NCBI GenBank assembly: GCA_015485945.1
Contig: WFSM01000063.1
Span: forward strand, 1 to 35,700
Origin: Candidatus Bipolaricaulota bacterium
GTDB lineage: Bacteria > Bipolaricaulota > Bipolaricaulia > UBA7950 > UBA9294
Direction of reading: 5' to 3'
DNA length: 35,700 nt
In this document: piece after piece, positions 17,526 to 30,905 of the stretch
Position numbering within the stretch: the first letter of the stretch is position 1
How the letters are laid out: each line of letters begins with the position of its first letter
Notes under the pieces: generated by a model
The model's input: the letters and a program-made list of their open reading frames with translations, nothing else
Told to the model about the DNA's origin: nothing
Databases searched by the model: none
Program-made: the position numbers and the translations under genes

Positions 17526-18308
17526 TTACTCGCTTGTGGCGCGTTGGAACACAATCTGGCTTATCAGCATGAACACGAGCGTAAGTCCCACGATCACCCC
17601 GGTGCCAGGAAGGATTTTCCCCCACTCCCAGCCGTGAATGGTGAGCTCACGGATGGGGCCAACGGCGTAGGTGACCGGGTTGAACTTAGCGATTGTGGCC
17701 AGCCATCCCGGCATCATGGTGATCGGGAACAGCGCGTTGCTCGCGAACATGAGCGGCAGGGTGAACAGGTTGACGATTGCCATCAGGGTTTCAATGGTGC
17801 GGATCGACGCGGCGAGCGATAGCGAGATTCCGCTCAGGATTCCGCTGAACAGGCTGGCGATAACGATGATAAGCAGAACCCCGCCGATCCCGGTTTGGAA
17901 CCGCACCCCGAACAGCAGGGCGATAACGACGATCGCCACCACTTGAATCGCCCCCTGCACCATCACCGCGAGCGCTTTGCCGAATGGAATCGCCCCTCGA
18001 TTGATCGGAGCGGCCATCAGTTTTTCCAGATACCCAATGCGCCGGTCCCACACGATCGACATTCCGCCGAATACCCCACCGAACAGGACGGTCATCAGGA
18101 TCACCCCCGGCGTCATAAACGTGAGGTAGTTGCTCGTCCCGAACATCTGCGCGCCGAACGGATTGTTTGTTACGCGGTTCATCGTGTTGCCCATGAACGC
18201 GAGCCAAATCACCGGTTGAATCAGAGTGAACACCAATCGTACTTTAGTGCGGAAAAACTTGATCAGCTCCCGCTTTGCTACATACCATGTATCGAACAAC
18301 AGCGTCAT
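17526..18308 (-). CDS. ABC-2 type exporter permease (DrrB-like)
   Basis: Six TM helices, Y..F..PG, DRRIGYLEKLMAAP, NPVTYAV. Confidence 0.92.
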   Translation of the reverse strand: MTLLFDTWYVAKRELIKFFRTKVRLVFTLIQPVIWLAFMGNTMNRVTNNPFGAQMFGTSNYLTFMTPGVILMTVLFGGVFGGMSIVWDRRIGYLEKLMAAPINRGAIPFGKALAVMVQGAIQVVAIVVIALLFGVRFQTGIGGVLLIIVIASLFSGILSGISLSLAASIRTIETLMAIVNLFTLPLMFASNALFPITMMPGWLATIAKFNPVTYAVGPIRELTIHGWEWGKILPGTGVIVGLTLVFMLISQIVFQRATSE

Positions 18309-19327
18309 TTTCCCCTCCGTGCTCGTCCTCGCATGAATCGCGCCTTCATGTGCGCTTCGTGGTTCTCGGTATCGTCTCGCATTGCGTGCCCGGTGAAGTG
18401 CAGGTATACGTCGTCGAGGGACGGTTTTTTTAGGCTGACCGCGTCAATCGTGACCCCGAGTTGTTCGCACAGCATGAACAACTGGGGAATAGTTTCCTCA
18501 CCCGCTTGCTCTACAATGACCCGATAAGTACCGTCCGCGGTCGGCTTTACCTGCCGGACGTGGGAAACCGCGCCGATGCGGGACTGCAGCGCCGACTCAT
18601 TGCCGTCAATGCCGGAGAACCGTACGTAGATGACATCGCCGCCGATGCCTGCCTTCAGCGCATCCGGCGTATCGAGCGCCGCGATCTCGCCGTTGTCGAT
18701 GATCGCCACGCGATCGCACAGCACATCCGCCTCTTCCATGTAGTGGGTGGTGACGAAGATCGTCATCTCGTGCTCGGTGCGCAGCTGTTCGACGTAGTCC
18801 CAGATCACTTGCCGCGTCTGCACATCAAGGCCGAGAGTCGGTTCGTCGAGAAACAGGATCTGGGGGCGGTGAATAAGGGCGCACGCAATGTCGAGCCGTT
18901 TTAACATCCCGCCGGAGTAAGTCGCGGTGAGATGCTTGCGGCGATCGTACAGGTTGAACATCTCAAGCACTTCGGTTGCACGGACACGGATTTCCCGGCC
19001 GGAAAGGTGATAAAATCGCCCCTGAAGCGTGATATTCTCCCATCCGGTGAGGCGGTCATCGATTGCCGTCTCCTGAGCGGCGTACCCGGTTGCCCGTTTG
19101 ATCTCCGCGGGATGACGCCGGATGTCGACTCCGTTGATCCGGAGGTCGCCGGCGGTCGGGTCGAGAAGGCCAATCAGAATTTTGATCGTTGTCGACTTTC
19201 CCGCGCCATTTGGGCCAAGCAGACCGAATATTTCGCCTCTCCCCACGTGAAACGACACCCCGTCCACCGCCCGCACTCCGTTCTTGTAAACCTTTACGAG
19301 ATCGTTAACTTCAATCGCGGTTTGCAT
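18305..19327 (-). CDS. ABC exporter ATP-binding protein (DrrA-like)
   Basis: GPNGAGKST, YSGGM, LFLDEPTLGLD, TTHYMEEAD, C-terminal PSLDDVY. Confidence 0.95.
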   Translation of the reverse strand: MQTAIEVNDLVKVYKNGVRAVDGVSFHVGRGEIFGLLGPNGAGKSTTIKILIGLLDPTAGDLRINGVDIRRHPAEIKRATGYAAQETAIDDRLTGWENITLQGRFYHLSGREIRVRATEVLEMFNLYDRRKHLTATYSGGMLKRLDIACALIHRPQILFLDEPTLGLDVQTRQVIWDYVEQLRTEHEMTIFVTTHYMEEADVLCDRVAIIDNGEIAALDTPDALKAGIGGDVIYVRFSGIDGNESALQSRIGAVSHVRQVKPTADGTYRVIVEQAGEETIPQLFMLCEQLGVTIDAVSLKKPSLDDVYLHFTGHAMRDDTENHEAHMKARFMRGRARRGK

Positions 19328-19835
19328 ATCTTTTCAACTCCTTGATCGCTCGCATCAATATCCCGTCAATCTGGGTCAGCTCCGCGGGCGAGAGGTCGTG
19401 GACCGGGATCTCGGTGATAGTCCGCCACAGCTCATGCAGGTTGCCACGCACCGCCGGGGGAACGCGGCGGCGAATCCGCTCCAGATGCGCAGTCAACTCG
19501 ACCTCCATTTCCTTTCCAAACAGTTCGCCGAGGACACGAATTGATCGCCGCACGCCCTCCATCGCCTCCTCCTTTGCCGCATGGGCGCGAGCGAGCCCAT
19601 CCCGCCCTTTCGCGGTGAGCGAGTAGACTTTCTTGTCCTTTTCAACGCGATGTTCAATCCATCCCGCCTCTTCCAGCGCCGCGAGGAGCGGATAAATCGA
19701 ACCGGGTGATGGCCGCCAAAACCCGGTGTTCTCCTCAATCCGCTTCATCAGGGAATATCCGGATATGCCGGTGGGGGCTTCGCCAATTAGCTTTAACAGG
19801 TACAGCCGTAGGAATCCCCGGTTCATTGTGCGCAT
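19311..19835 (-). CDS. PadR family transcriptional regulator
   Basis: GYSLMKRIEE..GFWRPSPGSIYPLLAALEEAG..KKVYSLTAKG winged helix; AAGGTGG RBS before ATG 19835. Confidence 0.92.
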   Translation of the reverse strand: MRTMNRGFLRLYLLKLIGEAPTGISGYSLMKRIEENTGFWRPSPGSIYPLLAALEEAGWIEHRVEKDKKVYSLTAKGRDGLARAHAAKEEAMEGVRRSIRVLGELFGKEMEVELTAHLERIRRRVPPAVRGNLHELWRTITEIPVHDLSPAELTQIDGILMRAIKELKRYANRD

Positions 19836-19852
19836 ACGCCACCTTCTTCGTG

Positions 19853-19866
19853 TCCGATATATCGGA
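19853..19866. promoter_or_regulatory. Perfect palindrome, probable PadR operator
   Basis: TCCGATATATCGGA lies 17 nt upstream of the padR start, beside TATAAT (19872-19877), in the divergent padR/peptidase spacer. Confidence 0.6.
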
Positions 19867-19955
19867 TGCGATATAATAGCCCGCTTGGCGCCAGTTGCAA
19901 GTCGGACTGGGAGAATCGGGATGGCGGCGATAACATCACCGGGAAAGGAGGAAGG

Positions 19956-21902
19956 ATGGATAAGGTTAACGCGGAAGATCTGCTCGCGTATCGGTTCCTG
20001 TCCGGGGTGCGGATCTCCCCTGATGGAAAATGGGCGGGATTTATCGTGAAGCGGGCACGGAAGAAGGAAAATGACTACGAAAGTGACATCTACGTCGTGA
20101 GCCTGGCAACCGGCACTGTCCGGCGACTGACCACCTCCGGCAAGGACGGGCCGTTCGCGTGGAGCGCCGATTCGCGGTCGATCGTGTTCGTATCGCGCCG
20201 TGGTGGGGAAAAGGAGAAAGAAAAGAAGGAAAGCCCGCTGTACCGCATCGCGATCGACGGTGGCGAGGCTGAACTGATCGGGACAATCCCCCACAAGGCC
20301 GAATCGCTCGAACTCCTGGACGACGGCCGCCTGCTTTACTCGGCGCGCGTGCCGCTGTTCGAAAAAAAAGAGGACGACAACGACTACGAGGTGCTGGACG
20401 AAATCCCGTTTTGGTCAAATGGAGTCGGGTTCACCAACAAGCGCCGTCGCCACCTGTTCGCGTTTGATCTCGCCTCCGGGAATGACGAGGAACTCGTAAC
20501 GGGGACGATCAACGTGACGGGGTTTGACATCCGCGGAACGGAGATCGCCTACACTGGCAAGGAGTTTGCGGATAAGGCGCCGCTCACCGACCAACTGTGG
20601 CTTCTCGATGTCGCCACTGGCGCGCGCACGTGTCTGTCCAAGGACGAGCTTTCTCTGTCCGCCCCGCGGTTCCTCGGAGATGGTCGAATCGTCGTCCTTG
20701 GGACCGATATGCGGACGTACGGGCTGAACGAGAATCGGGAAGTGCTCGTGGTCGACATCGCAACGGGAAAATTCTCGTCTCTCACCCCGGGGTGGGACCG
20801 TTCGACCGGAAACTCGGTCAACTCTGACGTCCGCCACGGCGGCGGGCCAATGATGCGCGCCGATGGAGAGTCCGTCTACGTGGTCGTGACCGAGGACGAC
20901 TCCTCCTATCTTGACTGTGTCATCTCTGGCGGGGAAACCACCCGCGCAGTTACGGCGCCGGGCTCGGTTGACGCGTTCGACGTCCGTGACGGCAGGCTCG
21001 TTTACGTCGCACTCCGGCCCGGCAAGCTGCAGGAGCTGTACACAATTGTCGATGGTGCCGAGCAGCGGCTGACCGCGCTTAACGCGGATGCGCTTGCCGG
21101 CAAAGCGGTGGCCGCGCCGGAGCGGTTTGCAGTTACCACCGCGGATGGGACCGAACTTGCCGCGTGGATCGTCCGTCCGCCTGACTGTGACCAAAGCCGA
21201 AAATATCCAACTGTCCTCGCCATCCACGGCGGGCCAAAGACGACCTACGGTGAGGTGTTCATCCACGAAATGCAGCTCCTCGCCGGTGCGGGCTACATCA
21301 TCGTGTTCGGCAACCCGCGCGGTTCGTCCGGACGGGGAAATGCGTTCGCCGACATCCGCGGCAAATACGGAACGATCGACTACGATGACTTGATGGCAAT
21401 CCTGGATGCGGCGATCGCGCGGTTCCCGGAAATCGACGCCGACCGTCTCGGGGTGATGGGCGGCTCGTACGGCGGGTTCATGACCAACTGGATCATCGGG
21501 CACACCGACCGGTTCAAGGCGGCGTGCTCACAACGATCAATCGCCAATTGGATCTCCAAGTTCTGCACCACCGATATCGGCTATTTCTTCAACTACGACC
21601 AGATCGGCGCTACCCCGTGGCAGGACGACGGCAACAAGCTGTGGCGGCACTCCCCGTTGCGCTACGCCGACCGGGCGAAAACCCCGACGCTGTTCATCCA
21701 CTCCCAAGAGGACTACCGCTGCTGGATCGCTGAGGGGATCCAGATGTTCACCGCGCTACGCTACCACGGGACCGAGACGCGATTGGTCATGTTCCGCGGC
21801 GAGAACCACGATCTGTCGCGCACCGGCAAGCCGCAACACCGCCTGCGCCGCCTGGAAGAGATCGTAAGTTGGTTCAATAACCACCTGAAGGGAGACGTAT
21901 GA
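19956..21902 (+). CDS. S9 family (acylaminoacyl/prolyl oligo-) peptidase
   Basis: N-terminal beta-propeller repeats (SPDG), IHGGP, NPRGS, nucleophile GGSYGG, HSQED, GENH; AAGGAGG RBS. Confidence 0.93.
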   Translation: MDKVNAEDLLAYRFLSGVRISPDGKWAGFIVKRARKKENDYESDIYVVSLATGTVRRLTTSGKDGPFAWSADSRSIVFVSRRGGEKEKEKKESPLYRIAIDGGEAELIGTIPHKAESLELLDDGRLLYSARVPLFEKKEDDNDYEVLDEIPFWSNGVGFTNKRRRHLFAFDLASGNDEELVTGTINVTGFDIRGTEIAYTGKEFADKAPLTDQLWLLDVATGARTCLSKDELSLSAPRFLGDGRIVVLGTDMRTYGLNENREVLVVDIATGKFSSLTPGWDRSTGNSVNSDVRHGGGPMMRADGESVYVVVTEDDSSYLDCVISGGETTRAVTAPGSVDAFDVRDGRLVYVALRPGKLQELYTIVDGAEQRLTALNADALAGKAVAAPERFAVTTADGTELAAWIVRPPDCDQSRKYPTVLAIHGGPKTTYGEVFIHEMQLLAGAGYIIVFGNPRGSSGRGNAFADIRGKYGTIDYDDLMAILDAAIARFPEIDADRLGVMGGSYGGFMTNWIIGHTDRFKAACSQRSIANWISKFCTTDIGYFFNYDQIGATPWQDDGNKLWRHSPLRYADRAKTPTLFIHSQEDYRCWIAEGIQMFTALRYHGTETRLVMFRGENHDLSRTGKPQHRLRRLEEIVSWFNNHLKGDV

Positions 21903-23354: not shown

Positions 23355-23834
23355 ATGGGACGCTACACAATCCGGACGATGACGCAGTCCGACGCTGAGG
23401 CAGTGGCACGACTGGCGCGATTGTTCGAACCGATTTCAACCACCGTTTTTCGTGGGATCACCGCCGCGGATGTGTGCAGTTGGGTGCGGGACCGGTTGAA
23501 CCGTCCTGGCTGGGACGGATTTGTGGCCGTTGCCGAGGATGGGGAAGTGATCGGATTCACGCTGTGTAAAGACCTAGGAAAGGAGGAATCGGAGTTCATT
23601 TTTCCTGAAGCGCGTGAAACGATCCAACTCCTTTACCTCGCTGTCGATGAGGCGTTTCGCGGGCAAGGAATTGCGAGCGCTCTCATCCAGGCGTGCGAGG
23701 ACATGGCGAGAGAATCAGGGCGTACGGGGATCCTTCTTGATGTCACCGAGTCCAATCCAGCGATTAGCCTTTATCGTCGCCTTGGGTTCGAGCGTCTGGG
23801 CGCGCAGGTGTTCATGCGCAAGAAGTTGGAGTGA
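23355..23834 (+). CDS. GNAT N-acetyltransferase
   Basis: LAVDEAFRGQGIASAL, N.AISLYRRLGF; AAGGGGAG RBS. Confidence 0.9.
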   Translation: MGRYTIRTMTQSDAEAVARLARLFEPISTTVFRGITAADVCSWVRDRLNRPGWDGFVAVAEDGEVIGFTLCKDLGKEESEFIFPEARETIQLLYLAVDEAFRGQGIASALIQACEDMARESGRTGILLDVTESNPAISLYRRLGFERLGAQVFMRKKLE

Positions 23835-23854
23835 GTAGGCGGTAGCTCACGCAG

Positions 23855-24409
23855 CTATCGTGATCTTCGTGGCATTTCAACCGCCAGAAAGACGATCACT
23901 CCAATAGCAAGTATGATGTCGCCGACGCTGAACGCGGTGGCGAATGGAACTACTGCTGGAACGGCGAACCGATCGCCGAGGAAATTCAGCCGTGTGCCGG
24001 CGCTCATGAGAATGGTGTTGCTGTGGTGCAGAGTTTGCTCCAACGCCGCGACTGTCTTTTCCATGCCCGCATAGCGGAGCGCTGCGACCGACGCCGGCAT
24101 GTATCCCCCGTTTGCCGCGATGACAACGATGTTCGAAATAAGGCCAATTCCCATCGTGAACAACCCAACCAATCGGTAGTTGACCACAATAAACGCGAGG
24201 AGAAACGCGTACGACAGCAGATGCAGAACCTGGGTTCCAATCCGTACAATCGGCGCACCAGTTCCCAACGGGAATATCAGTACCTGAATTACCAACGCGG
24301 CAAGGATCAACCACAACCCGCTGAACTTCAGCCGGGCCAGGTTTCTCAGGGAACCGTGGCGGAGAAAACCGACAATAACCCCGATCACTAACGCCCACAG
24401 GAGGAACAT
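23855..24409 (-). CDS. DUF5317-family membrane protein
   Basis: GSLRNLARL, GLISNIVVIAANGGYMP, TRLNFLGD and FSVGDIIL motifs recognised as DUF5317; about 5 TM helices; starts 1 nt after the HD-GYP stop. Confidence 0.8.
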   Translation of the reverse strand: MFLLWALVIGVIVGFLRHGSLRNLARLKFSGLWLILAALVIQVLIFPLGTGAPIVRIGTQVLHLLSYAFLLAFIVVNYRLVGLFTMGIGLISNIVVIAANGGYMPASVAALRYAGMEKTVAALEQTLHHSNTILMSAGTRLNFLGDRFAVPAVVPFATAFSVGDIILAIGVIVFLAVEMPRRSR

Positions 24410-24410
24410 G

Positions 24411-25658
24411 CTAAATCACCGTGAGGAAGACCGTGACAATGTTGGGGTCAAGGTCCTTTCCGCTCATGTCCTGCATGATCTTAAGTGCCTCTTGTTTGGA
24501 ATAGGCGTTGCGATACGGACGGTCAGTGGTCAACGCATTGTAAACGTCGGCCACAGCGACAATCCGTGCCCCCAATGGAATCTGTTCACCGTTTAACCCA
24601 TCGGGATACCCGCTTCCGTCCCAGTGTTCGTGGTGGTGGCGGATGATGCCAATGCTTTTATCGTAGATCTCAAGCCCAGCGAGCAGGTCCGCGCTGATAA
24701 CCGGATGCCGTTTAATTGTCTCCCACTCGGCCGGGGTTAACTTGCCTGGTTTGAGGAGAACACGATCGGGGATGGCGATCTTCCCGATGTCGTGGACGCG
24801 TGCCGCCGCCACGATCGCCTCCACTTCATCTTCGGGCAACTTAAGCGCGCGCGCTATTCGCTCCGAGATAGCGGCCACCTCTTCCGAGTGCTTCCCGGTG
24901 TACGGATTGCGTTCCGTCAGGCTTTGGGCGACCTTTTCGAACGTTTCCTGCGCCTGGTGGCGCAACTGCATATAGCCGCGAAGCGATACGTGGACCAGGG
25001 CTAATGGAACGATGACAAGGAAAATGTACCACGGTTGAATCTGGAACAGGATGGCGAGCAGAAGCGACAGCACTCCCAGCGACAGAAGCTGGATATAGAG
25101 ATGGCGCAGGTTAAACCGAAGATGATATAAAAAGCTTATCTTCTCGGTGAGGTGGATGATCTCGGACACGAGTGACGTATTCACCAGGATGTAGGTTAGA
25201 AACGCGGCCACTGGCGGACCAAACTCCGCAAGCGTGGTATACGGTGGCGGATGCCCGCCGGCAGCTTTAAACACCGCGGCGCTGGCTGCAACGGTAATTA
25301 TGGTTTGGCTGACATTAAACATCACGTGGTAAAAGAACGATGAAATGTTACTATGAGGAGCCTTCCATCGCAGGATGATCTCGGCGGTAAGAGTCCCTAG
25401 CAAGACGGCCGGAATTACAAGCGTAGACCCGCCGAGGAAGATTGCCGCCAGGTAGATGGCAATGGACGCGGATGTATACCGCTGGTAAGTGATCTCGATC
25501 TCGTAGATCTCTGAAAAAAAAGCGATCACTCCGAGGAACGCTAGAGTTAAGAGAAAATAGCGGGTTAGTTCTACTTGCGGGAGGTAGAATGCGGTACACA
25601 AAACGGCGAGAGCGAACACGACCCATAAGTATATTTTCGCGCCTATTTTTAGCGACAT
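24411..25658 (-). CDS. Membrane-sensor HD-GYP c-di-GMP phosphodiesterase
   Basis: About 230-aa multi-TM N-terminus (MASE9-like); YTGKHS, HDIGK, HHEHWDGSGYPDGL, ARIVAVADVYNALTTDRPYR. Confidence 0.9.
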   Translation of the reverse strand: MSLKIGAKIYLWVVFALAVLCTAFYLPQVELTRYFLLTLAFLGVIAFFSEIYEIEITYQRYTSASIAIYLAAIFLGGSTLVIPAVLLGTLTAEIILRWKAPHSNISSFFYHVMFNVSQTIITVAASAAVFKAAGGHPPPYTTLAEFGPPVAAFLTYILVNTSLVSEIIHLTEKISFLYHLRFNLRHLYIQLLSLGVLSLLLAILFQIQPWYIFLVIVPLALVHVSLRGYMQLRHQAQETFEKVAQSLTERNPYTGKHSEEVAAISERIARALKLPEDEVEAIVAAARVHDIGKIAIPDRVLLKPGKLTPAEWETIKRHPVISADLLAGLEIYDKSIGIIRHHHEHWDGSGYPDGLNGEQIPLGARIVAVADVYNALTTDRPYRNAYSKQEALKIMQDMSGKDLDPNIVTVFLTVI

Positions 25659-25679
25659 TTAGTAACATTCTACAAAATT

Positions 25680-25706
25680 AAAAAGGGGGAGACAACCTCC
25701 TCCCCC
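25680..25706 (-). terminator. Intrinsic terminator between the peptide gene and the HD-GYP gene
   Basis: Minus strand reads GGGGGAG-gaggttgt-CTCCCCC-TTTTT. Confidence 0.7.
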
Positions 25707-25747
25707 ACAACTAAACCCTACTTAAATACCCTGCAGAAAAGTTACAT

Positions 25748-25873
25748 TTAATATCCCCACTTATCAGTAGCACCGCTTAAGATCAGAAGAGCTGCCAGCG
25801 ATAACAGGATGAACAACCCCTTTGGCCCCACAAGCTTACTGATCAACTTCGTCGGATAGTTTCCCCACTTCAT
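25748..25873 (-). CDS. 41-aa small hydrophobic peptide (putative signalling-peptide precursor) MKWGNYPTKLISKLVGPKGLFILLSLAALLILSGATDKWGY
   Basis: AAAGGGGG RBS 7 nt before ATG 25873; basic n-region, hydrophobic core, SGA, short polar/aromatic tail; own promoter and terminator. Confidence 0.7.
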   Translation of the reverse strand: MKWGNYPTKLISKLVGPKGLFILLSLAALLILSGATDKWGY

Positions 25874-25997
25874 TGATGTACCCCCTTTGTTGTAGTTTGG
25901 CCCTGCGTGAATCGTGGAACAGACTGCCACTCTCTCTAATAAGTAGGTTATCACCCCCTGACCAACCTGTATTTGTTACTTTTGTTACTTTTTATAT

Positions 25998-26027
25998 CTT
26001 ATACATCAACGAGAGGTGATAAGTCAA
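25998..26027 (-). promoter_or_regulatory. Sigma70-type promoter for the peptide cassette
   Basis: Minus strand TTGACT (26027-26022), 18-nt spacer, TATAAG (26003-25998), in an AT-rich spacer. Confidence 0.5.
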
Positions 26028-26071
26028 GTCCCCGCATGCTCCGCGCACGGTGATGCCGCGTGAGACACGGG

Positions 26072-26100
26072 TTGACAACGGAAGTGAATGCCGGTAAAGT
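26072..26100 (+). promoter_or_regulatory. Sigma70-type promoter for trpB2, giving a leader of about 180 nt
   Basis: TTGACA (26072-26077), 17-nt spacer, TAAAGT (26095-26100). Confidence 0.6.
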
Positions 26101-26285
26101 AATCGCGTTATGATCGAGGTGAGAGTCAGCGGACGAAGGAGGTGCGTTTGGGGTCTGTAGCCCCGTTTCGCTCGTTGATATCTCGTTTTTAGAATTCCCT
26201 CCGTTTAAACCGTGGTGGCGTCGCTAGAACCTTTCTGGTCGTCAGTTTGAAACATCCTTAAAAACCCAAGAAAGGAGACGTCATT

Positions 26286-27587
26286 ATGGAAAGAATCTTT
26301 AACTTAAATCAACACCAGTTGCCGACTCGTTGGTATAACGTACTTGCCGATCTCGATCGACCGCTTGATCCGCCGCTCGATCCTCGCACCCAGGAACCGC
26401 TCTCTCCGGAGGCACTCACCGCGCTGTTTGCCAAAACATGTGTGGAACAGGAGGTATCTACTGATCGGTTTATTGATATTCCTCCCGCGGTGCAGGACAT
26501 CTACCAACTGTGGCGGCCGACGCCGGTCTATCGAGCGGTGAACCTGGAGCGAGCGCTCGACACGCCCGCACACATCTACTACAAGTACGAGGGCGCGAGC
26601 CCTACCGGCTCGCACAAGACGAACACCGCGGTTGCCCAGGCGTACTACAACAAAATCGAGGGCACGAAGCGCCTTACCACCGAAACCGGGGCCGGCCAAT
26701 GGGGGAGCGCGCTGTCGTTTGCGTGTCAAGCCCTCGGTATCGACCTGACCGTGTTTATGGTCAAGGTGTCATACGAGCAAAAGCCGTATCGCAAGGCGAT
26801 GATCGAATTGTACGGAGCGGAGATCACGCCGTCGCCGTCGCAACGGACGCACGCCGGCCGCGCTGTGCTCGCCGAAGATCCTGATTCACCGGGATCGCTG
26901 GGGATCGCGATCTCTGAGGCGATCGAGGAGGCGATGGCCACCGGGGCGAAGTATTCGCTGGGAAGCGTGCTTAACCACGTACTCCTCCATCAAACGGTCA
27001 TCGGCCAGGAGGCACTGGCGCAGATGGATCTCGCCGGGGAGTACCCGGACGCCGTCGTCGGATGCGTGGGCGGCGGGTCGAACTTCGGTGGACTGATGCT
27101 TCCCATCCTGTACGATTCCCGCAATCGCGGGCGGCAGGTGGAATTCATCGCCGCCGAGCCGACTGCATGCCCGACGATGACCAAGGGCGAGGTGCGCTAC
27201 GATTTTGGGGATGAGGCTGAACTCACCCCGTTGTTACGCATGCACACCTTGGGGCACAAGTTTGTTCCCCCTCCGATTCACGCTGGCGGTCTGCGCTATC
27301 ACGGGATGGCACCGATTATCACCCGGTTGGTGGAGGACGGGGTGGTGCAGCCGGTCGCGTTCGACCAGTTAGAGGTGTTCAATGATGCGGTTATGTTTGC
27401 CCGTGCCGAAGGGATTATCCCCGCTCCGGAGACGGCGCACGCCGTGCATGCGGCCGTCGAACTGGCACGCGACTGTGCCCGCCGCGACGAAAAGAAAGTG
27501 ATTCTCATCGGCTTTTCCGGCCATGGGCACTTCGATATGTCCGCATACACTGCCTATCTTAGCGGGCAATTAGTCAGCACGCGTTGA
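26286..27587 (+). CDS. trpB: Tryptophan synthase beta chain type 2 (TrpB2, stand-alone PLP enzyme)
   Basis: WYN N-terminal extension, WRPTP, GSHK (PLP lysine), [30 protein letters not shown]; no adjacent trpA. Confidence 0.93.
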
Positions 27588-28022: not shown

Positions 28023-28499
28023 TCAGGTGTACTTATCGGCGACTGACGATGCTGCGTACGCCTGCGGCTTGATGCGGACGGCGAATCCGCTTCCGATGAT
28101 CATCCCGACGACCTCATCGATCATTGCTTTGCTACGACCGTTTTCCCCGATATCAACGTGAATTTCCAGGTTAAACGGAAGTAGGGACTCCGCCGACAGC
28201 CGTGCCAGCAGCCGCTGCGCGAGATCGAACGATAACAGCGCTTCGCGCCAGATTTTTTGCCGGAGGGATGGTATTTTCGGCTCTCGCCGCCGCGTCCAGA
28301 AGTAACGTCCGCCCTTGCCAAGTTTATGGATGACGACGGCGCTCACCAGGTCGATCGTATCAGTTCCAGTGGAAGAATCAGTACCGACAAGGATCTCGTA
28401 ATGAGCTTTGGGATCGGATTCCATTTCGGAAATTATCGTGTGTATGACCGCGTCGAAGTCAAGCACACCTAAGTGAGGGTTGTAGAATTCTCCGTCCAT
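28023..28499 (-). CDS. RNase H-like YkuK (DUF458) family protein
   Basis: VGTDS, SAVVIH..GKGGRYF, LRQKI..E...S, EIHVDIG.NG.S, IKP.AYAASSVADKYT. Confidence 0.88.
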   Translation of the reverse strand: MDGEFYNPHLGVLDFDAVIHTIISEMESDPKAHYEILVGTDSSTGTDTIDLVSAVVIHKLGKGGRYFWTRRREPKIPSLRQKIWREALLSFDLAQRLLARLSAESLLPFNLEIHVDIGENGRSKAMIDEVVGMIIGSGFAVRIKPQAYAASSVADKYT

Positions 28500-28531
28500 T
28501 TTCGTGATGATAGCGCCGGGGAAAATATACT

Positions 28532-29905
28532 TCAAGTGAGAGGAATCGTTACAGTGAACCGCGCGCCGCCGGTGGGGACGTTCTCCGCCCGGATATCACC
28601 GCCGTGCGCCTCGACCCACTGCTTGGCGATTGCTAATCCCAGTCCCGATCCGCCGCTTGTCCGCGTCCGTGCCCGATCGCCGCGGTAAAACCGCTCGAAC
28701 AGATGCGGCAAGTCATCAGGCGCAATCCCCGGCCCGGTGTCCGTCACGGTGAGTTCAATCTTGTCCTCGATCCGGCGCAGTACGATCTCGATCCGCCCGT
28801 CCGCAGGCGTGTACCGCACGGCGTTGCTCACTAGGTTCACAATCACCTGGCGGATGCGCATCGCATCGACGGATACCAGCGGTATTTCTCCTTCTTGCGT
28901 CATGTTAATGTTGGGGCCAGTGTCGAGTGCACCGGCGACCGTATCCGCCACTTGGTGGGTGAGAGCGACAATGTCGGTCGGAGTCCGGTTAAGTGGGAGC
29001 TCGCCGGCGTCGGCAAGCGACAGCTCGCGTAGGTCGTCGATCAATCGCCCGAGGTGGAGCGTCTCCTCGTAGATCGGGGCGATCGTCTCCGGCGTCGGCT
29101 CGTAAATTCCGTCCAGTATTGCCTCTAAGTTGCCCTGGATGATCGACACCGGGGTGCGAAGTTCATGGGCGATGTCCGCGGTCATCGTTTGGCGGACGCG
29201 TTCCGAACGGCGGAGATTGTCCATCATGCGGTTAAACGACTCACCGAGTTGGCCGAACTCATCGCGCGCCCGCAGAACTACGCGCTGAGTCAGATCTCCG
29301 TGTGCGATTCGTTCCGTCGCCCGCGATAGCATGCGCAATGGTGACAAAACCTGGGACAGAAGAATCATGGACAGGAATAACGCGACGCCCGTGGCAATCC
29401 CACCTCCAAGCAGCGCGGATTGCTTCGCTGAGTTGAGGAATTTCTCCTCGGCGGGATCGAGCGTTGCCGACTTCGTATCGAGGAGAAGTGTCCCCACCCG
29501 GGTATTCCCGATCTTGATTGGGATACCGGCCTTAATCTGTTTTGAAGTGAGGCTCTTTCCGACTTCGTCGGCGGTGGTGGACACAACGACTTTTCCGGTC
29601 TCGTCGGCGAGGGAAAACCCGCCGATCATCGACGTCCGCCGCGCGATTACATGGCCGTTGATCACCACGGTGTACTGCGTGGACAGCAGCCGCTCAATCC
29701 CAACCCAACTTCCGTTGAGCATTCGGTATTCGGCGAGCAGCCCGCACACCTGGTGCGCAATCTGCTGCTTGTTTTGGGTGCGGAACTGGTCAAACCGCGT
29801 TGTAATTGAGTGAGCGGTGAGAAAGTACACAAGTGCAACCGCGATCATGATCACAATCACGAATGACAATCCGAGCTTGAGCGCGAACGGAAACCGCCGT
29901 TTCAT
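28532..29905 (-). CDS. HAMP-domain sensor histidine kinase (BaeS-like)
   Basis: Start MKRRF at 29905; two TM helices, HAMP, ADIAHELRTP, NLVSNAVRYT, DTGPGI, FERFYRGD, GSGLGLAI. Confidence 0.95.
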   Translation of the reverse strand: MKRRFPFALKLGLSFVIVIMIAVALVYFLTAHSITTRFDQFRTQNKQQIAHQVCGLLAEYRMLNGSWVGIERLLSTQYTVVINGHVIARRTSMIGGFSLADETGKVVVSTTADEVGKSLTSKQIKAGIPIKIGNTRVGTLLLDTKSATLDPAEEKFLNSAKQSALLGGGIATGVALFLSMILLSQVLSPLRMLSRATERIAHGDLTQRVVLRARDEFGQLGESFNRMMDNLRRSERVRQTMTADIAHELRTPVSIIQGNLEAILDGIYEPTPETIAPIYEETLHLGRLIDDLRELSLADAGELPLNRTPTDIVALTHQVADTVAGALDTGPNINMTQEGEIPLVSVDAMRIRQVIVNLVSNAVRYTPADGRIEIVLRRIEDKIELTVTDTGPGIAPDDLPHLFERFYRGDRARTRTSGGSGLGLAIAKQWVEAHGGDIRAENVPTGGARFTVTIPLT

Positions 29906-30222
29906 AAAAGCCCTCCACTGGATACCCCACAGCTTGCTGGGGGGAAGGAAACGGGAATTTGCCGTCCGCGAATGGGTTCGTTGTCTGTCGGATTGCATAA
30001 CCTCGGCGACGGAGAACGTCGGGCGCAAGACCCGCTGCTACGAGAAACCTGGCTTTCCATAGTGGCTACCCCATGAAACAAGGTTTCACGGGGCAGGCCT
30101 TGTGTACGCCGTTGTTCTCCTATGTCCGTGTAGCTACAAAGCGACACAGCAACCTTCAACATGAGGATCAACCCCGCTTTAGACCTCTAATGTCCCCACA
30201 GCTTGCTGCGGGGTTCTTTTAC
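29906..30222 (-). mobile_element. Non-autonomous IS200/IS605-type element with HEARO/omegaRNA-like body, copy 2 (317 bp)
   Basis: Preceded by TTCAT (29901-29905) and ends in TTTAC; terminal hairpins at 29925-29944 and 30194-30213; deleting it restores an ATGA gene overlap. Confidence 0.78.
30069..30097 (-). repeat. REP-like hairpin nested in element copy 2
   Basis: Minus strand CCTG-CCCCGTGAAAC-ctt-GTTTCATGGGG; absent at the homologous position in copy 1. Confidence 0.55.
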
Positions 30223-30905
30223 TTCTCATCCCGGGTAAACCGATACCCCACTCCGTGCACGGTCAGTATGTAGCGCGGGTTTTTCGGGTCCTCATCTAAC
30301 TTTCTCCGGATGTTCTTGACGTGGGTGTCAATCGTGCGTGCGAATGAGTCGTACGTGTACCCTTGCACCTCACGCAGCAACTGCAGCCGGGTGAACACCT
30401 GGCCAGGATGGCGGGCGAGGAATACGAGCAAATCAAACTCGGTTGGGGTGAGCTCGACCGACTTACCGGCCAGCGTCACTTCCCGTGCCTTGAGATCGAT
30501 TGCAAGGTCTCCGACCTCGATTCGCTCCGGCTCAGCGCTCTTGCCCTCACTGCGCCGCAGGACAGCCCGCACCCGCGCTACGAGCTCGCGGGGGGAGAAC
30601 GGCTTTACCACGTAATCGTCCGCCCCGAGTTCGAGTCCAACAATGCGGTCAGTCTCCGCCGCTTTGGCAGTGAGCATGATGATCGGAACATTCGACCGGG
30701 TGCGGATACGTTTCGTCACATCTATCCCGCTCATCTTGGGAAGCATCAAATCAAGCACGATTAAATCAGGCCCCTTGTCCGCAAATTCTTGCAGCGCTTC
30801 CTCGCCATCATATGCAGCATAGGTCTTGAACCCTTCCCGTTCCAGATACGCCCGCACCGTGCGCACAATCATCTCTTCATCGTCAACTACCAAGACTCGT
30901 TTCAT
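30219..30905 (-). CDS. OmpR/PhoB family response regulator
   Basis: VVDDE, LDLMLP, MLTAK, GADDYVVKPF, LTPTEFDLL, TVHGVGYRF. Confidence 0.96.
   Translation of the reverse strand: MKRVLVVDDEEMIVRTVRAYLEREGFKTYAAYDGEEALQEFADKGPDLIVLDLMLPKMSGIDVTKRIRTRSNVPIIMLTAKAAETDRIVGLELGADDYVVKPFSPRELVARVRAVLRRSEGKSAEPERIEVGDLAIDLKAREVTLAGKSVELTPTEFDLLVFLARHPGQVFTRLQLLREVQGYTYDSFARTIDTHVKNIRRKLDEDPKNPRYILTVHGVGYRFTRDEK

Follow-up and report, generated by a model that had tools for sequence, protein, structure and literature searches.

A three-gene locus on the minus strand

The stretch of DNA analysed here, 35,700 nucleotides (nt) of contig WFSM01000063.1 from a Candidatus Bipolaricaulota bacterium (assembly GCA_015485945.1; hereafter the window), carries on its minus strand three co-oriented genes, which encode a mini-protein of 41 amino acids (aa), an HD-GYP protein with an N-terminal membrane domain, and a membrane protein of the family DUF5317 (Table 1). 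An earlier note on the window had singled out these genes as a candidate peptide-signalling cassette of the agr type, and most of its description of the locus proved accurate. The genes lie co-oriented where it had placed them; the region around the small open reading frame (ORF) is visibly richer in AT than its surroundings (GC 0.43-0.47 at 25400-25999, against 0.55-0.65 in the flanks); the ORF has a ribosome-binding site and a terminator-like hairpin of its own; a phosphodiesterase domain with intact HD and GYP motifs follows a membrane domain of about 230 aa; and a single base (24410) separates the HD-GYP stop codon from the DUF5317 ATG. Less firm is the promoter assigned to the small ORF, since the TTGACT/TATAAG pair is weak and was read by eye, a consensus promoter scan having passed over it because the last base of the -10 element is G.

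The ORF list of the window holds a longer, GTG-initiated form of the mini-protein ORF, and the 41 aa are counted from the ATG. Its stop codon lies 41 nt ahead of the terminator hairpin, and a T-run is found in the spacer between the mini-protein and HD-GYP genes at 35 of 55 related loci. We propose that the mini-protein gene is a transcription unit of its own with an abundant product. The HD-GYP gene of the window has no Shine-Dalgarno site and a -10-like hexamer ends 8 nt before its ATG, so that its mRNA may be leaderless in this lineage. Leaderless mRNA as a general feature of these genes was rejected, as a -10-like hexamer lies 5-11 nt before the start at 22 of the 55 loci and a Shine-Dalgarno site is present at 25. 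An Rfam scan of 23500-26400 found no riboswitch, including no cyclic di-GMP (c-di-GMP) riboswitch, its sole match being a chance microRNA at E 0.98. Between the possible -10 element and the Shine-Dalgarno site, within what is presumably the 5' leader of the mini-protein mRNA, lies a tandem direct repeat of two AAGTAACAA(A) units (25972-25990, minus strand), which could be a binding site for a regulator.

Table 1 Coordinates of the cassette and its features in the window
Feature	Position	Strand	Description
Possible mini-protein promoter	25998..26027	-	TTGACT (26027-26022), 18 nt, TATAAG (26003-25998); read by eye, weak
Shine-Dalgarno site	25881..25888	-	AAAGGGGG, 7 nt 5' of the mini-protein ATG
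Mini-protein gene	25748..25873	-	41 aa + stop, MKWGNYPTKLISKLVGPKGLFILLSLAALLILSGATDKWGY; ATG 25873-25871, stop 25750-25748
Mini-protein build	25748..25873	-	Basic at the N-side, then a single hydrophobic helix and a short tail with KW; predicted N-terminus in, C-terminus out
Intrinsic-terminator-like hairpin	25685..25706	-	8 bp, 6 of them GC, and T-run; between mini-protein and HD-GYP genes
Promoter-like site	25667..25695	-	TTGTCT, 17 nt, TAGAAT; 9/12 consensus matches; -10 ends 8 nt before the HD-GYP ATG
HD-GYP gene	24411..25658	-	415 aa
Membrane sensor domain	24954..25658	-	Residues 1 to ~235; helical membrane segments; possibly a divergent MASE9 (below cut-off)
HD-GYP catalytic domain	24438..24926	-	Residues 245-407; Pfam HD_5, 1.7e-44; HD and GYP motifs intact
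DUF5317 gene	23855..24409	-	184 aa + stop; PF17248

The mini-protein belongs to a conserved family

Used alone as a query against 41 related genomes, the 41-aa sequence gave matches at E ≤ 10 in 25 of them, nearly all located 1.3-2.9 kb upstream of a DUF5317 gene and on the same strand. Nineteen matching ORFs had an identifiable start (two of them contain masked residues, and two further matches lacked such a start). All nineteen begin with MKW and are preceded by a purine-rich, Shine-Dalgarno-like stretch, with a GGAG/GAGG core in 18 cases and GGGGG at a GTG-start copy in locus L038. In an alignment of 18 sequences, residues M1, K2, W3 and K38 are invariant. A profile built from 18 peptides detected the family in 130 of 184 Bipolaricaulota genomes, including 59 of the 71 high-quality ones, with up to six matches per genome, arranged in tandem. 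Small ORFs conserved in homologous loci, on which the earlier proposal depended, clearly exist.

From 80 Bipolaricaulota contigs we extracted 69 ORF matches, of which 68 are genuine (67 starting with ATG, one with GTG) and 64 unique; all but one of the 69 have a Shine-Dalgarno core no more than 20 nt from the start. Tandem copies often number two to seven, each with its own Shine-Dalgarno site, and up to seven identical copies stand in a row at locus L222. Runs of N (masked or unassembled sequence) interrupt the arrays of L037, L038, L039 and L158, so the copy numbers there are lower bounds. The pooled pN/pS over 58 pairs is 0.227, indicating purifying selection on the amino acid sequence. Conservation, synteny and purifying selection together establish the small ORF as a real gene.

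In a large protein collection, 249 clusters match the mini-protein profile at E ≤ 0.01, several of them with Candidatus Bipolaricaulota as the NCBI source name. None of the best 120 of these 249 contains a Pfam domain, and where they bear a name it is 'hypothetical protein', apart from P0085, labelled phosphoribosyltransferase-like by JGI. Pfam and NCBIfam scans of seven peptides gave nothing above any cut-off, and the clusters that the ESM Atlas yielded, at 0.88-0.89, were all unnamed.

Both ends of the mini-protein carry recognizable motifs. Of the 64 unique peptides, 59 start with MKW and 63 have KW near the end; every one has a small residue (G, A, S or C) four places before the tail K, followed by A, E or Q. 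The resulting pattern is [G/A/S/C][A/E/Q]xxKW. The sequence of the tail varies between lineages around a constant K-W core. The N-side carries a mean net charge of +3.9 and the C-side one of +0.8, with the N-side the more positive in 61 of the 64 peptides, an excess that places the N-terminus inside and the tail outside. We thus predict a single-pass membrane protein with an inward N-terminus and an outward tail of 3-10 residues, counted from the K. The signal-peptide-like architecture described earlier holds for the basic N-side, the hydrophobic helix and the tail; the invariant MKW shows that the N-terminus is more than that of a disposable signal peptide.

The three genes are linked across the phylum

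A tblastn search of the loci of 20 relatives placed an HD-GYP gene beside DUF5317 in 18 and all three genes together in 15. Over a larger set of 80 genome loci, the HD-GYP gene lies directly upstream of DUF5317 in 75, and at least one peptide gene was present in all 56 loci that offer about 170 nt or more of sequence ahead of the HD-GYP gene (a count read by eye from the locus table; the other 20 HD-GYP loci end at a contig edge). Among the 184 genomes, the peptide was found in 130, the sensor domain in 139, DUF5317 in 157 and all three in 124; peptide and sensor occur together in 125, the peptide without the sensor in 5 and the sensor without the peptide in 14. These are metagenome-assembled genomes, related to one another and in many cases incomplete, and the co-occurrence counts are descriptive, with no statistical test applied. 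Taken together, the sequence comparisons support the view that mini-ORF, HD-GYP gene and DUF5317 gene constitute a conserved functional cassette. At three loci (L026 in genome G037, L115 and L234) the whole gene for the transmembrane (TM) HD-GYP protein is tandemly duplicated between the peptide gene and DUF5317.

The HD-GYP protein carries a sensor domain modelled as an ECF S-component fold

In 18 homologues of the HD-GYP protein, residues H257, H289, D290, H318, H343, E344, G350, Y351, P352 and D371 are invariant, and by sequence the protein has the hallmarks of a c-di-GMP phosphodiesterase of the HD-GYP type. The membrane domain ahead of it may be a divergent MASE9 (PF20972): the match at residues 35-223 scores 19.5 bits, below the cut-off of 24.3, and a MASE9 match at E ≤ 0.01 was obtained for 8 of the 18 homologues, the best at E 7.3e-10.

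The AlphaFold2 (AF2) model of the sensor domain has a mean predicted local distance difference test score (pLDDT) of 88.2. In a structural search of representative structures with this model, the top 15 rows are all S-components of energy-coupling factor (ECF) transporters (Z 15.1 to 8.4), led by 4m5c_A (Z 15.1, root-mean-square deviation (rmsd) 3.3 Å, 186 residues aligned); the S-component matches align 151-186 residues at a sequence identity of 8-15%. Below them follow MreD (9dvb_D, Z 8.2), the S-component CbrT (6fnp_E, Z 7.0) and others at Z 6.8 or less. Foldseek likewise gave TmRibU as the best match, at E 0.014 and a probability of 1.00. The modelled sensor domain thus has the fold of an ECF S-component. 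A search confined to the cassette found no EcfT or EcfA genes, and the fusion of the S-component-like domain to an HD-GYP domain argues for a role as a sensor and not as part of a transporter. The preprint on MASE9 by Galperin and Chou (10.1101/2021.11.05.467447) proposes ligand binding inside the membrane; the part of it accessible to us names no ligand, does not contain the terms 'ECF' or 'S-component', and mentions neither a small ORF nor a DUF5317 partner.

DUF5317 shows a weak likeness to signal peptidase II

The third protein matches DUF5317 (PF17248) with 116.5 bits against a cut-off of 25 (1.4e-33) over 150 of the 151 model positions, and the family is large, its profile finding 5117 representative clusters at E ≤ 0.001; the cultivable Thermus thermophilus and Thermotoga maritima are among its apparent carriers. 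The AF2 model (pLDDT 89.7) shows a loop domain of about 60 residues besides five predicted TM helices. Residues N77, G89, N93, N100, P105, D146, S161, G163 and D164 are invariant among 102 diverse homologues. By the positive-inside rule applied to the model, the loop domain would face outward together with the beginning of the last helix, and the pair of aspartates, D146 and D164, would likewise lie outside.

DUF5317 weakly resembles signal peptidase II, LspA. Aligned by hhalign with 18 true LspA sequences of the same phylum, DUF5317 gave P 0.04 when represented by 20 sequences and P 0.0032 when represented by 102, while the sensor alignment, serving as control, gave P 0.38. The alignment pairs G-N, D146 and F-S-x-G-D164 of DUF5317 with G-N, V-x-D-F and F-N-x-A-D of LspA, so that D146 and D164 weakly match its two catalytic aspartates. 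When the DUF5317 model was compared with known structures, LspA was represented by 6ryp_A (Z 5.3, rmsd 3.3, 91 residues aligned) and 5dir_A (Z 5.1, rmsd 3.2, 92 aligned), both confirmed as LspA and having the highest sequence identity in the structural list (17-18%); a comparison of DUF5317 with PDB sequences gave nothing below E 1. Sequence and model thus make a coherent but weak case for a likeness to signal peptidase II. A separate, true LspA gene is present in all 26 genomes searched. In the source genome of the window, which is fragmented (193 contigs, 84.5% complete), the signal peptidase II gene is broken in two, with one part at an end of contig C97 and the other at an end of C8, a reflection of that fragmentation.

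The domain partners of DUF5317 suggest a further role. A Pfam scan of 25 homologues of long or odd length found fusions to MFS in 12, to GGDEF in two (one of which also carries MFS), to TPR in two and to SPOR in one, and DUF5317 alone in nine. The N-terminal extensions of three homologues (P0211, P0220 and P0198) were checked as possible peptide fusions and are not such fusions. Since DUF5317 can be fused to PAS-GAF-GGDEF or to MFS, it may act as a second receptor or transducer, instead of or besides being a processing enzyme. The earlier idea of DUF5317 as the processor of the peptide draws weak support from the likeness to signal peptidase II.

Outside the phylum the outputs are exchanged

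Loci from soil metagenomes were fetched with DUF5317-MFS fusions as the query, and an ORF was taken as peptide-like if it matched the Bipolaricaulota profile at E < 1. Among 33 such loci with at least 2400 nt of sequence upstream of DUF5317, 26 encode a TM-HD-GYP protein, 26 a peptide-like ORF and 23 both. In six-frame translations the profile found 42 matches, 41 of them on the DUF5317 strand, against none in the reversed decoy. The metagenomic peptides are only 25-36 aa long and consist of a basic start, a hydrophobic helix, A-[S/A]-G-A-G and then x-[K/R]-[F/W]-G; the MKW start is lost outside the phylum and the tail motif is kept.

The genes joined to these peptides differ in order and in output. 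In L169 the peptide is followed by a TM-HD_5-GGDEF protein (762 aa) and, one base later, a DUF5317-MFS fusion (770 aa), and in L158 by further peptide copies, a MASE9-HD-GYP protein and a DUF5317-PAS-GAF-GGDEF fusion; four more loci have DUF5317 frames similarly long to that of L158. A peptide followed by DUF5317 alone and a soluble GAF-GAF-GGDEF protein is found in L218 and L233, and these two loci, like L239, combine mini-ORF, DUF5317 and soluble GGDEF protein without any S-component-like sensor. L230 encodes DUF5317, a 217-aa ORF, the peptide and a MASE9-like membrane domain fused to HisKA-HATPase. In L211 and L214, peptide and TM-HD-GYP protein precede a DUF5317 that has gained one more TM helix along with a SPOR domain, and L150 has the order DUF5317, a minimal peptide of 26 aa, HD-GYP. 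Across these gene orders and outputs, the constant parts are the mini-ORF, the sensor-type membrane domain and DUF5317, and it is the output that changes.

A similar mini-ORF of 31 aa, with a weak profile match (E 0.3-1), occurs in L210 and L213 (minus strand, around L210:4027-6009). It precedes a protein in which a sensor-type N-terminal membrane domain (E 5e-9) is joined to 4Fe-4S and CCG domains and not to HD-GYP; the DUF5317-MFS gene lies divergently. In L237, a gene matching Pfam Frankia_peptide (48.8 bits, cut-off 48; L237:1311-1775), a family of ribosomally synthesised peptides, stands just after a DUF5317 gene that has a weak mini-ORF match upstream.

A proposed membrane signalling module and its alternatives

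We tentatively favour a reading in which the three genes form one membrane signalling module and both membrane proteins encoded behind the mini-protein have it as their cognate ligand or substrate. In this module the S-component-like (MASE9-type) sensor domain would control the HD-GYP c-di-GMP phosphodiesterase, and DUF5317 would bind the outer end of the mini-protein beside D146 and D164, where it would probably cut it much as signal peptidase II does its substrates. The sensor would read the tail or the remaining helix with its S-component-like pocket, and c-di-GMP hydrolysis would be set by the amount or the cleavage state of the mini-protein. In those lineages that have DUF5317 fused or adjacent to a GGDEF cyclase, DUF5317 would also set c-di-GMP synthesis, and the two membrane proteins would act as opposing arms on one signal.

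The conserved adjacency of the genes, retained through several gene orders and outputs, suggests that the mini-protein works with both membrane proteins. Tandem amplification, a terminator of its own and a strong Shine-Dalgarno site agree with overproduction and consumption of the product. The tail, the small residues before it and the DUF5317 aspartates are all placed at the outer face, which favours binding by DUF5317 and probably cutting. What we infer here concerns binding, cleavage, the direction of regulation and the action of the signal within or between cells; of these, cleavage by DUF5317 is possible though open to real doubt, and a true cell-to-cell signal appears unlikely.

Several observations count against the module as proposed. 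A structural Z of 5.3 lies within the chance range for helical proteins, designed helical bundles scoring higher, and the hhalign probability for the DUF5317-LspA pair is only 10%. Pfam Peptidase_A8 (PF01252) gave no match to DUF5317, for which DUF5317 was the only family reported at E ≤ 0.01; Foldseek against pdb found nothing for the DUF5317 model at E ≤ 0.001; and the invariant D-R motif of LspA has no counterpart in the DUF5317 alignment. The DUF5317-PAS-GAF-GGDEF fusion looks like a sensor domain and not like a protease. In genomes G026 and G012, and in the second copy in G039, the peptide adjoins HD-GYP with DUF5317 elsewhere in the genome, and G025 and G027 have DUF5317 with neither peptide nor sensor, so that DUF5317 has a role for which adjacency is not required. 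On the side of the receptor, S-components bind vitamins and metals, and the true ligand of the sensor could therefore be a small molecule. Finally, a simple cut-and-release model leaves the invariant cytoplasmic MKW unexplained.

In the main competitor of the module, the mini-protein is never cut and serves as a stable accessory subunit, a permanent partner of the sensor. The sensor would itself respond to some small molecule, for instance a vitamin, a metal or an amino acid, with DUF5317 as a further accessory or a separate transducer. Such partners exist in MgrB for PhoQ and in CbiN for the S-component CbiM. The fold of the sensor, that of binders of small micronutrients, and the weakness of the evidence for DUF5317 as a peptidase both speak for it. 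The mini-protein gene, moreover, always adjoins the sensor gene, even where DUF5317 lies elsewhere, and the invariance of both ends of the mini-protein, including the cytoplasmic MKW, fits a structural partner better than a disposable precursor. Arrays of up to seven identical copies, an own terminator and a strong Shine-Dalgarno site, however, point to an excess over the sensor that would be unusual for a 1:1 subunit; L218, L233 and L239 combine the mini-ORF with DUF5317 and a soluble GGDEF protein where no S-component-like sensor is encoded; and outside the phylum it is the N-terminal motif that is lost and the tail motif that is kept. On balance we regard an uncut accessory subunit as rather unlikely.

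The mini-protein could also be the precursor of a quorum pheromone, DUF5317 or signal peptidase I releasing a tail of 4-10 residues that neighbouring cells sense through the pocket of the HD-GYP protein. A product built as a signal peptide with a tiny tail, reduced to 25-31 aa in other lineages, would suit this role, as would the amplification of its gene, the variation of the tail between lineages around the K-W core, and the histidine-kinase variant in L230; the DUF5317-MFS fusions, 12 among the 25 long or odd-length homologues, recall peptidase-exporter fusions. The release of the tail is itself a supposition, however, and judged by the rule for residues at signal peptidase I sites the tail fits poorly, with E or Q often at -3 from the K and, in one lineage, P after the small pair. 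For these reasons a universal signal peptidase I site in the tail was dropped. Neither an exporter nor an importer is encoded in the cassette of the window, the N-terminus is conserved, and these are organisms with small genomes in which social signalling is unproven, all of which makes a released pheromone improbable to us. Of the explanations considered, a purely regulatory leader ORF, whose translation would control terminator read-through into the HD-GYP operon while the peptide itself has no function, is by far the hardest to sustain. The ORF is short, always upstream, and separated from the HD-GYP gene by a terminator; yet its amino acids are under purifying selection, its motifs and membrane topology are kept over hundreds of clusters, and its tandem copies each have their own Shine-Dalgarno site. 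In the window, the distance from stop codon to hairpin (41 nt) and the separate promoter-like site of the HD-GYP gene also argue against it, as do other lineages in which the mini-ORF stands immediately ahead of DUF5317 or of a kinase gene.

Taken further, the proposed module would be one member of a widespread and so far undescribed gene-encoded class of membrane or peptide signalling in Bipolaricaulota and soil lineages. In it, a mini-ORF amounting to hardly more than a signal peptide with a K-W tail would be processed by DUF5317 as a new family of LspA-like intramembrane aspartyl peptidases and read by receptors of S-component fold (MASE9 type). These receptors would be wired to c-di-GMP phosphodiesterases, cyclases or histidine kinases, and where DUF5317 carries a GGDEF domain the pair would make a push-pull switch acting on a single peptide. 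We consider a class of this breadth, and likewise such wiring, to be unlikely.

Relation to known systems and significance

In its logic the cassette resembles agr, Phr or MgrB-type systems, an analogy of arrangement in which no part is homologous to theirs. The agr system of staphylococci comprises the precursor AgrD, the membrane peptidase AgrB and the membrane histidine kinase AgrC. Here too a small precursor-like ORF is encoded together with a polytopic possible processor and a polytopic receptor, and L230 even has the kinase output. That kinase-fused variant has the agr-like wiring that the earlier note had suggested. In the window the analogy goes no further: Pfam and NCBIfam scans of the three proteins gave no AgrB, AgrD or AgrC homologue, the peptide has no cysteine for a thiolactone, the output of the receptor is HD-GYP and not a histidine kinase, and the mini-protein resembles a signal peptide with a short tail instead of an amphipathic leader, a core and a charged tail.

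Like LspA (family A8), DUF5317 is a small polytopic membrane protein with two invariant aspartates, which in DUF5317 are putatively near the outer face. A weak alignment is obtained for the motifs GN...D and F-[S/N]-x-[G/A]-D-x(5)-G and a weak match for the folds (6ryp, 5dir), and the candidate substrate, whose helix ends in small residues, is built like a signal peptide. However, DUF5317 has five helices against four, the order of the motifs differs, and the lipobox cysteine at +1 is missing, the residue after the small one being A, E or Q in 64 of 64 peptides. The membrane domain of the HD-GYP protein shares its predicted fold with the ECF S-components RibU, ThiT, BioY, FolT and NikM/CbiM, of which the NikM/CbiM type works with small membrane partners. 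It differs from them in being fused to a cytoplasmic phosphodiesterase, in a cassette with no EcfT/EcfA partner.

The pairing of a single-pass protein of fewer than 50 aa with a membrane sensor, encoded nearby and presumed to be its target, recalls MgrB-PhoQ and SafA-PhoQ. MgrB and SafA act on kinases, are not amplified in tandem and have no second conserved membrane partner, and the mini-protein has no sequence relation to either. In the DSF-RpfC-RpfG system of Xanthomonas (DSF, diffusible signal factor), a fatty-acid signal leads a kinase to phosphorylate a soluble REC-HD-GYP protein. As might be the case here, a signal from outside the cell is finally converted into c-di-GMP hydrolysis by an HD-GYP domain; in the cassette, however, sensor and HD-GYP domain are parts of one membrane protein, and a gene encodes the candidate signal. 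The order of a polytopic membrane domain followed by HD-GYP is also that of MASE9-HD-GYP proteins such as Thermotoga maritima TM1467, as far as they are covered in the accessible part of the preprint (10.1101/2021.11.05.467447), from which the protein of the window differs in scoring below the MASE9 cut-off.

The literature that we searched contained no mention of DUF5317 or PF17248, and no such cassette appeared in the accessible portions of the literature on HD-GYP peptide pheromones, on c-di-GMP in Bipolaricaulota or on small membrane proteins associated with c-di-GMP enzymes. The trio recurs in many bacteria and is probably an undescribed signalling unit with the mini-protein as its input. 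The input signals of most c-di-GMP enzymes await identification, and the cassette offers a candidate ligand that is gene-encoded and can be synthesised. It would also provide a first functional context for the DUF5317 family, and it brings to light a conserved family of proteins of 25-53 aa that annotation has mostly missed. To judge by the model of the sensor, a fold that serves vitamin capture in ECF transporters may have found a second use in sensing. Should DUF5317 prove to be LspA-like, it would be a second kind of signal-peptidase-II-type enzyme, acting on peptides that are not lipidated.

Neighbouring genes

The neighbours of the cassette in the window encode TrmO, a flavin reductase, a GNAT acetyltransferase and a pyridoxal phosphate (PLP) enzyme. 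The PLP enzyme, a 433-aa member of the PALP family that we read as TrpB-like (26286-27587, plus strand), diverges from the mini-protein gene across an intergenic region of 330 nt, which has no Rfam match. Further away lie a two-component system (28532-30905, minus strand) made up of a HAMP-HisKA-HATPase kinase and an OmpR-type regulator, an RNaseH-like gene beside it (28023-28535), and, at 17526-20294, a PadR regulator with an ABC-2 transporter.

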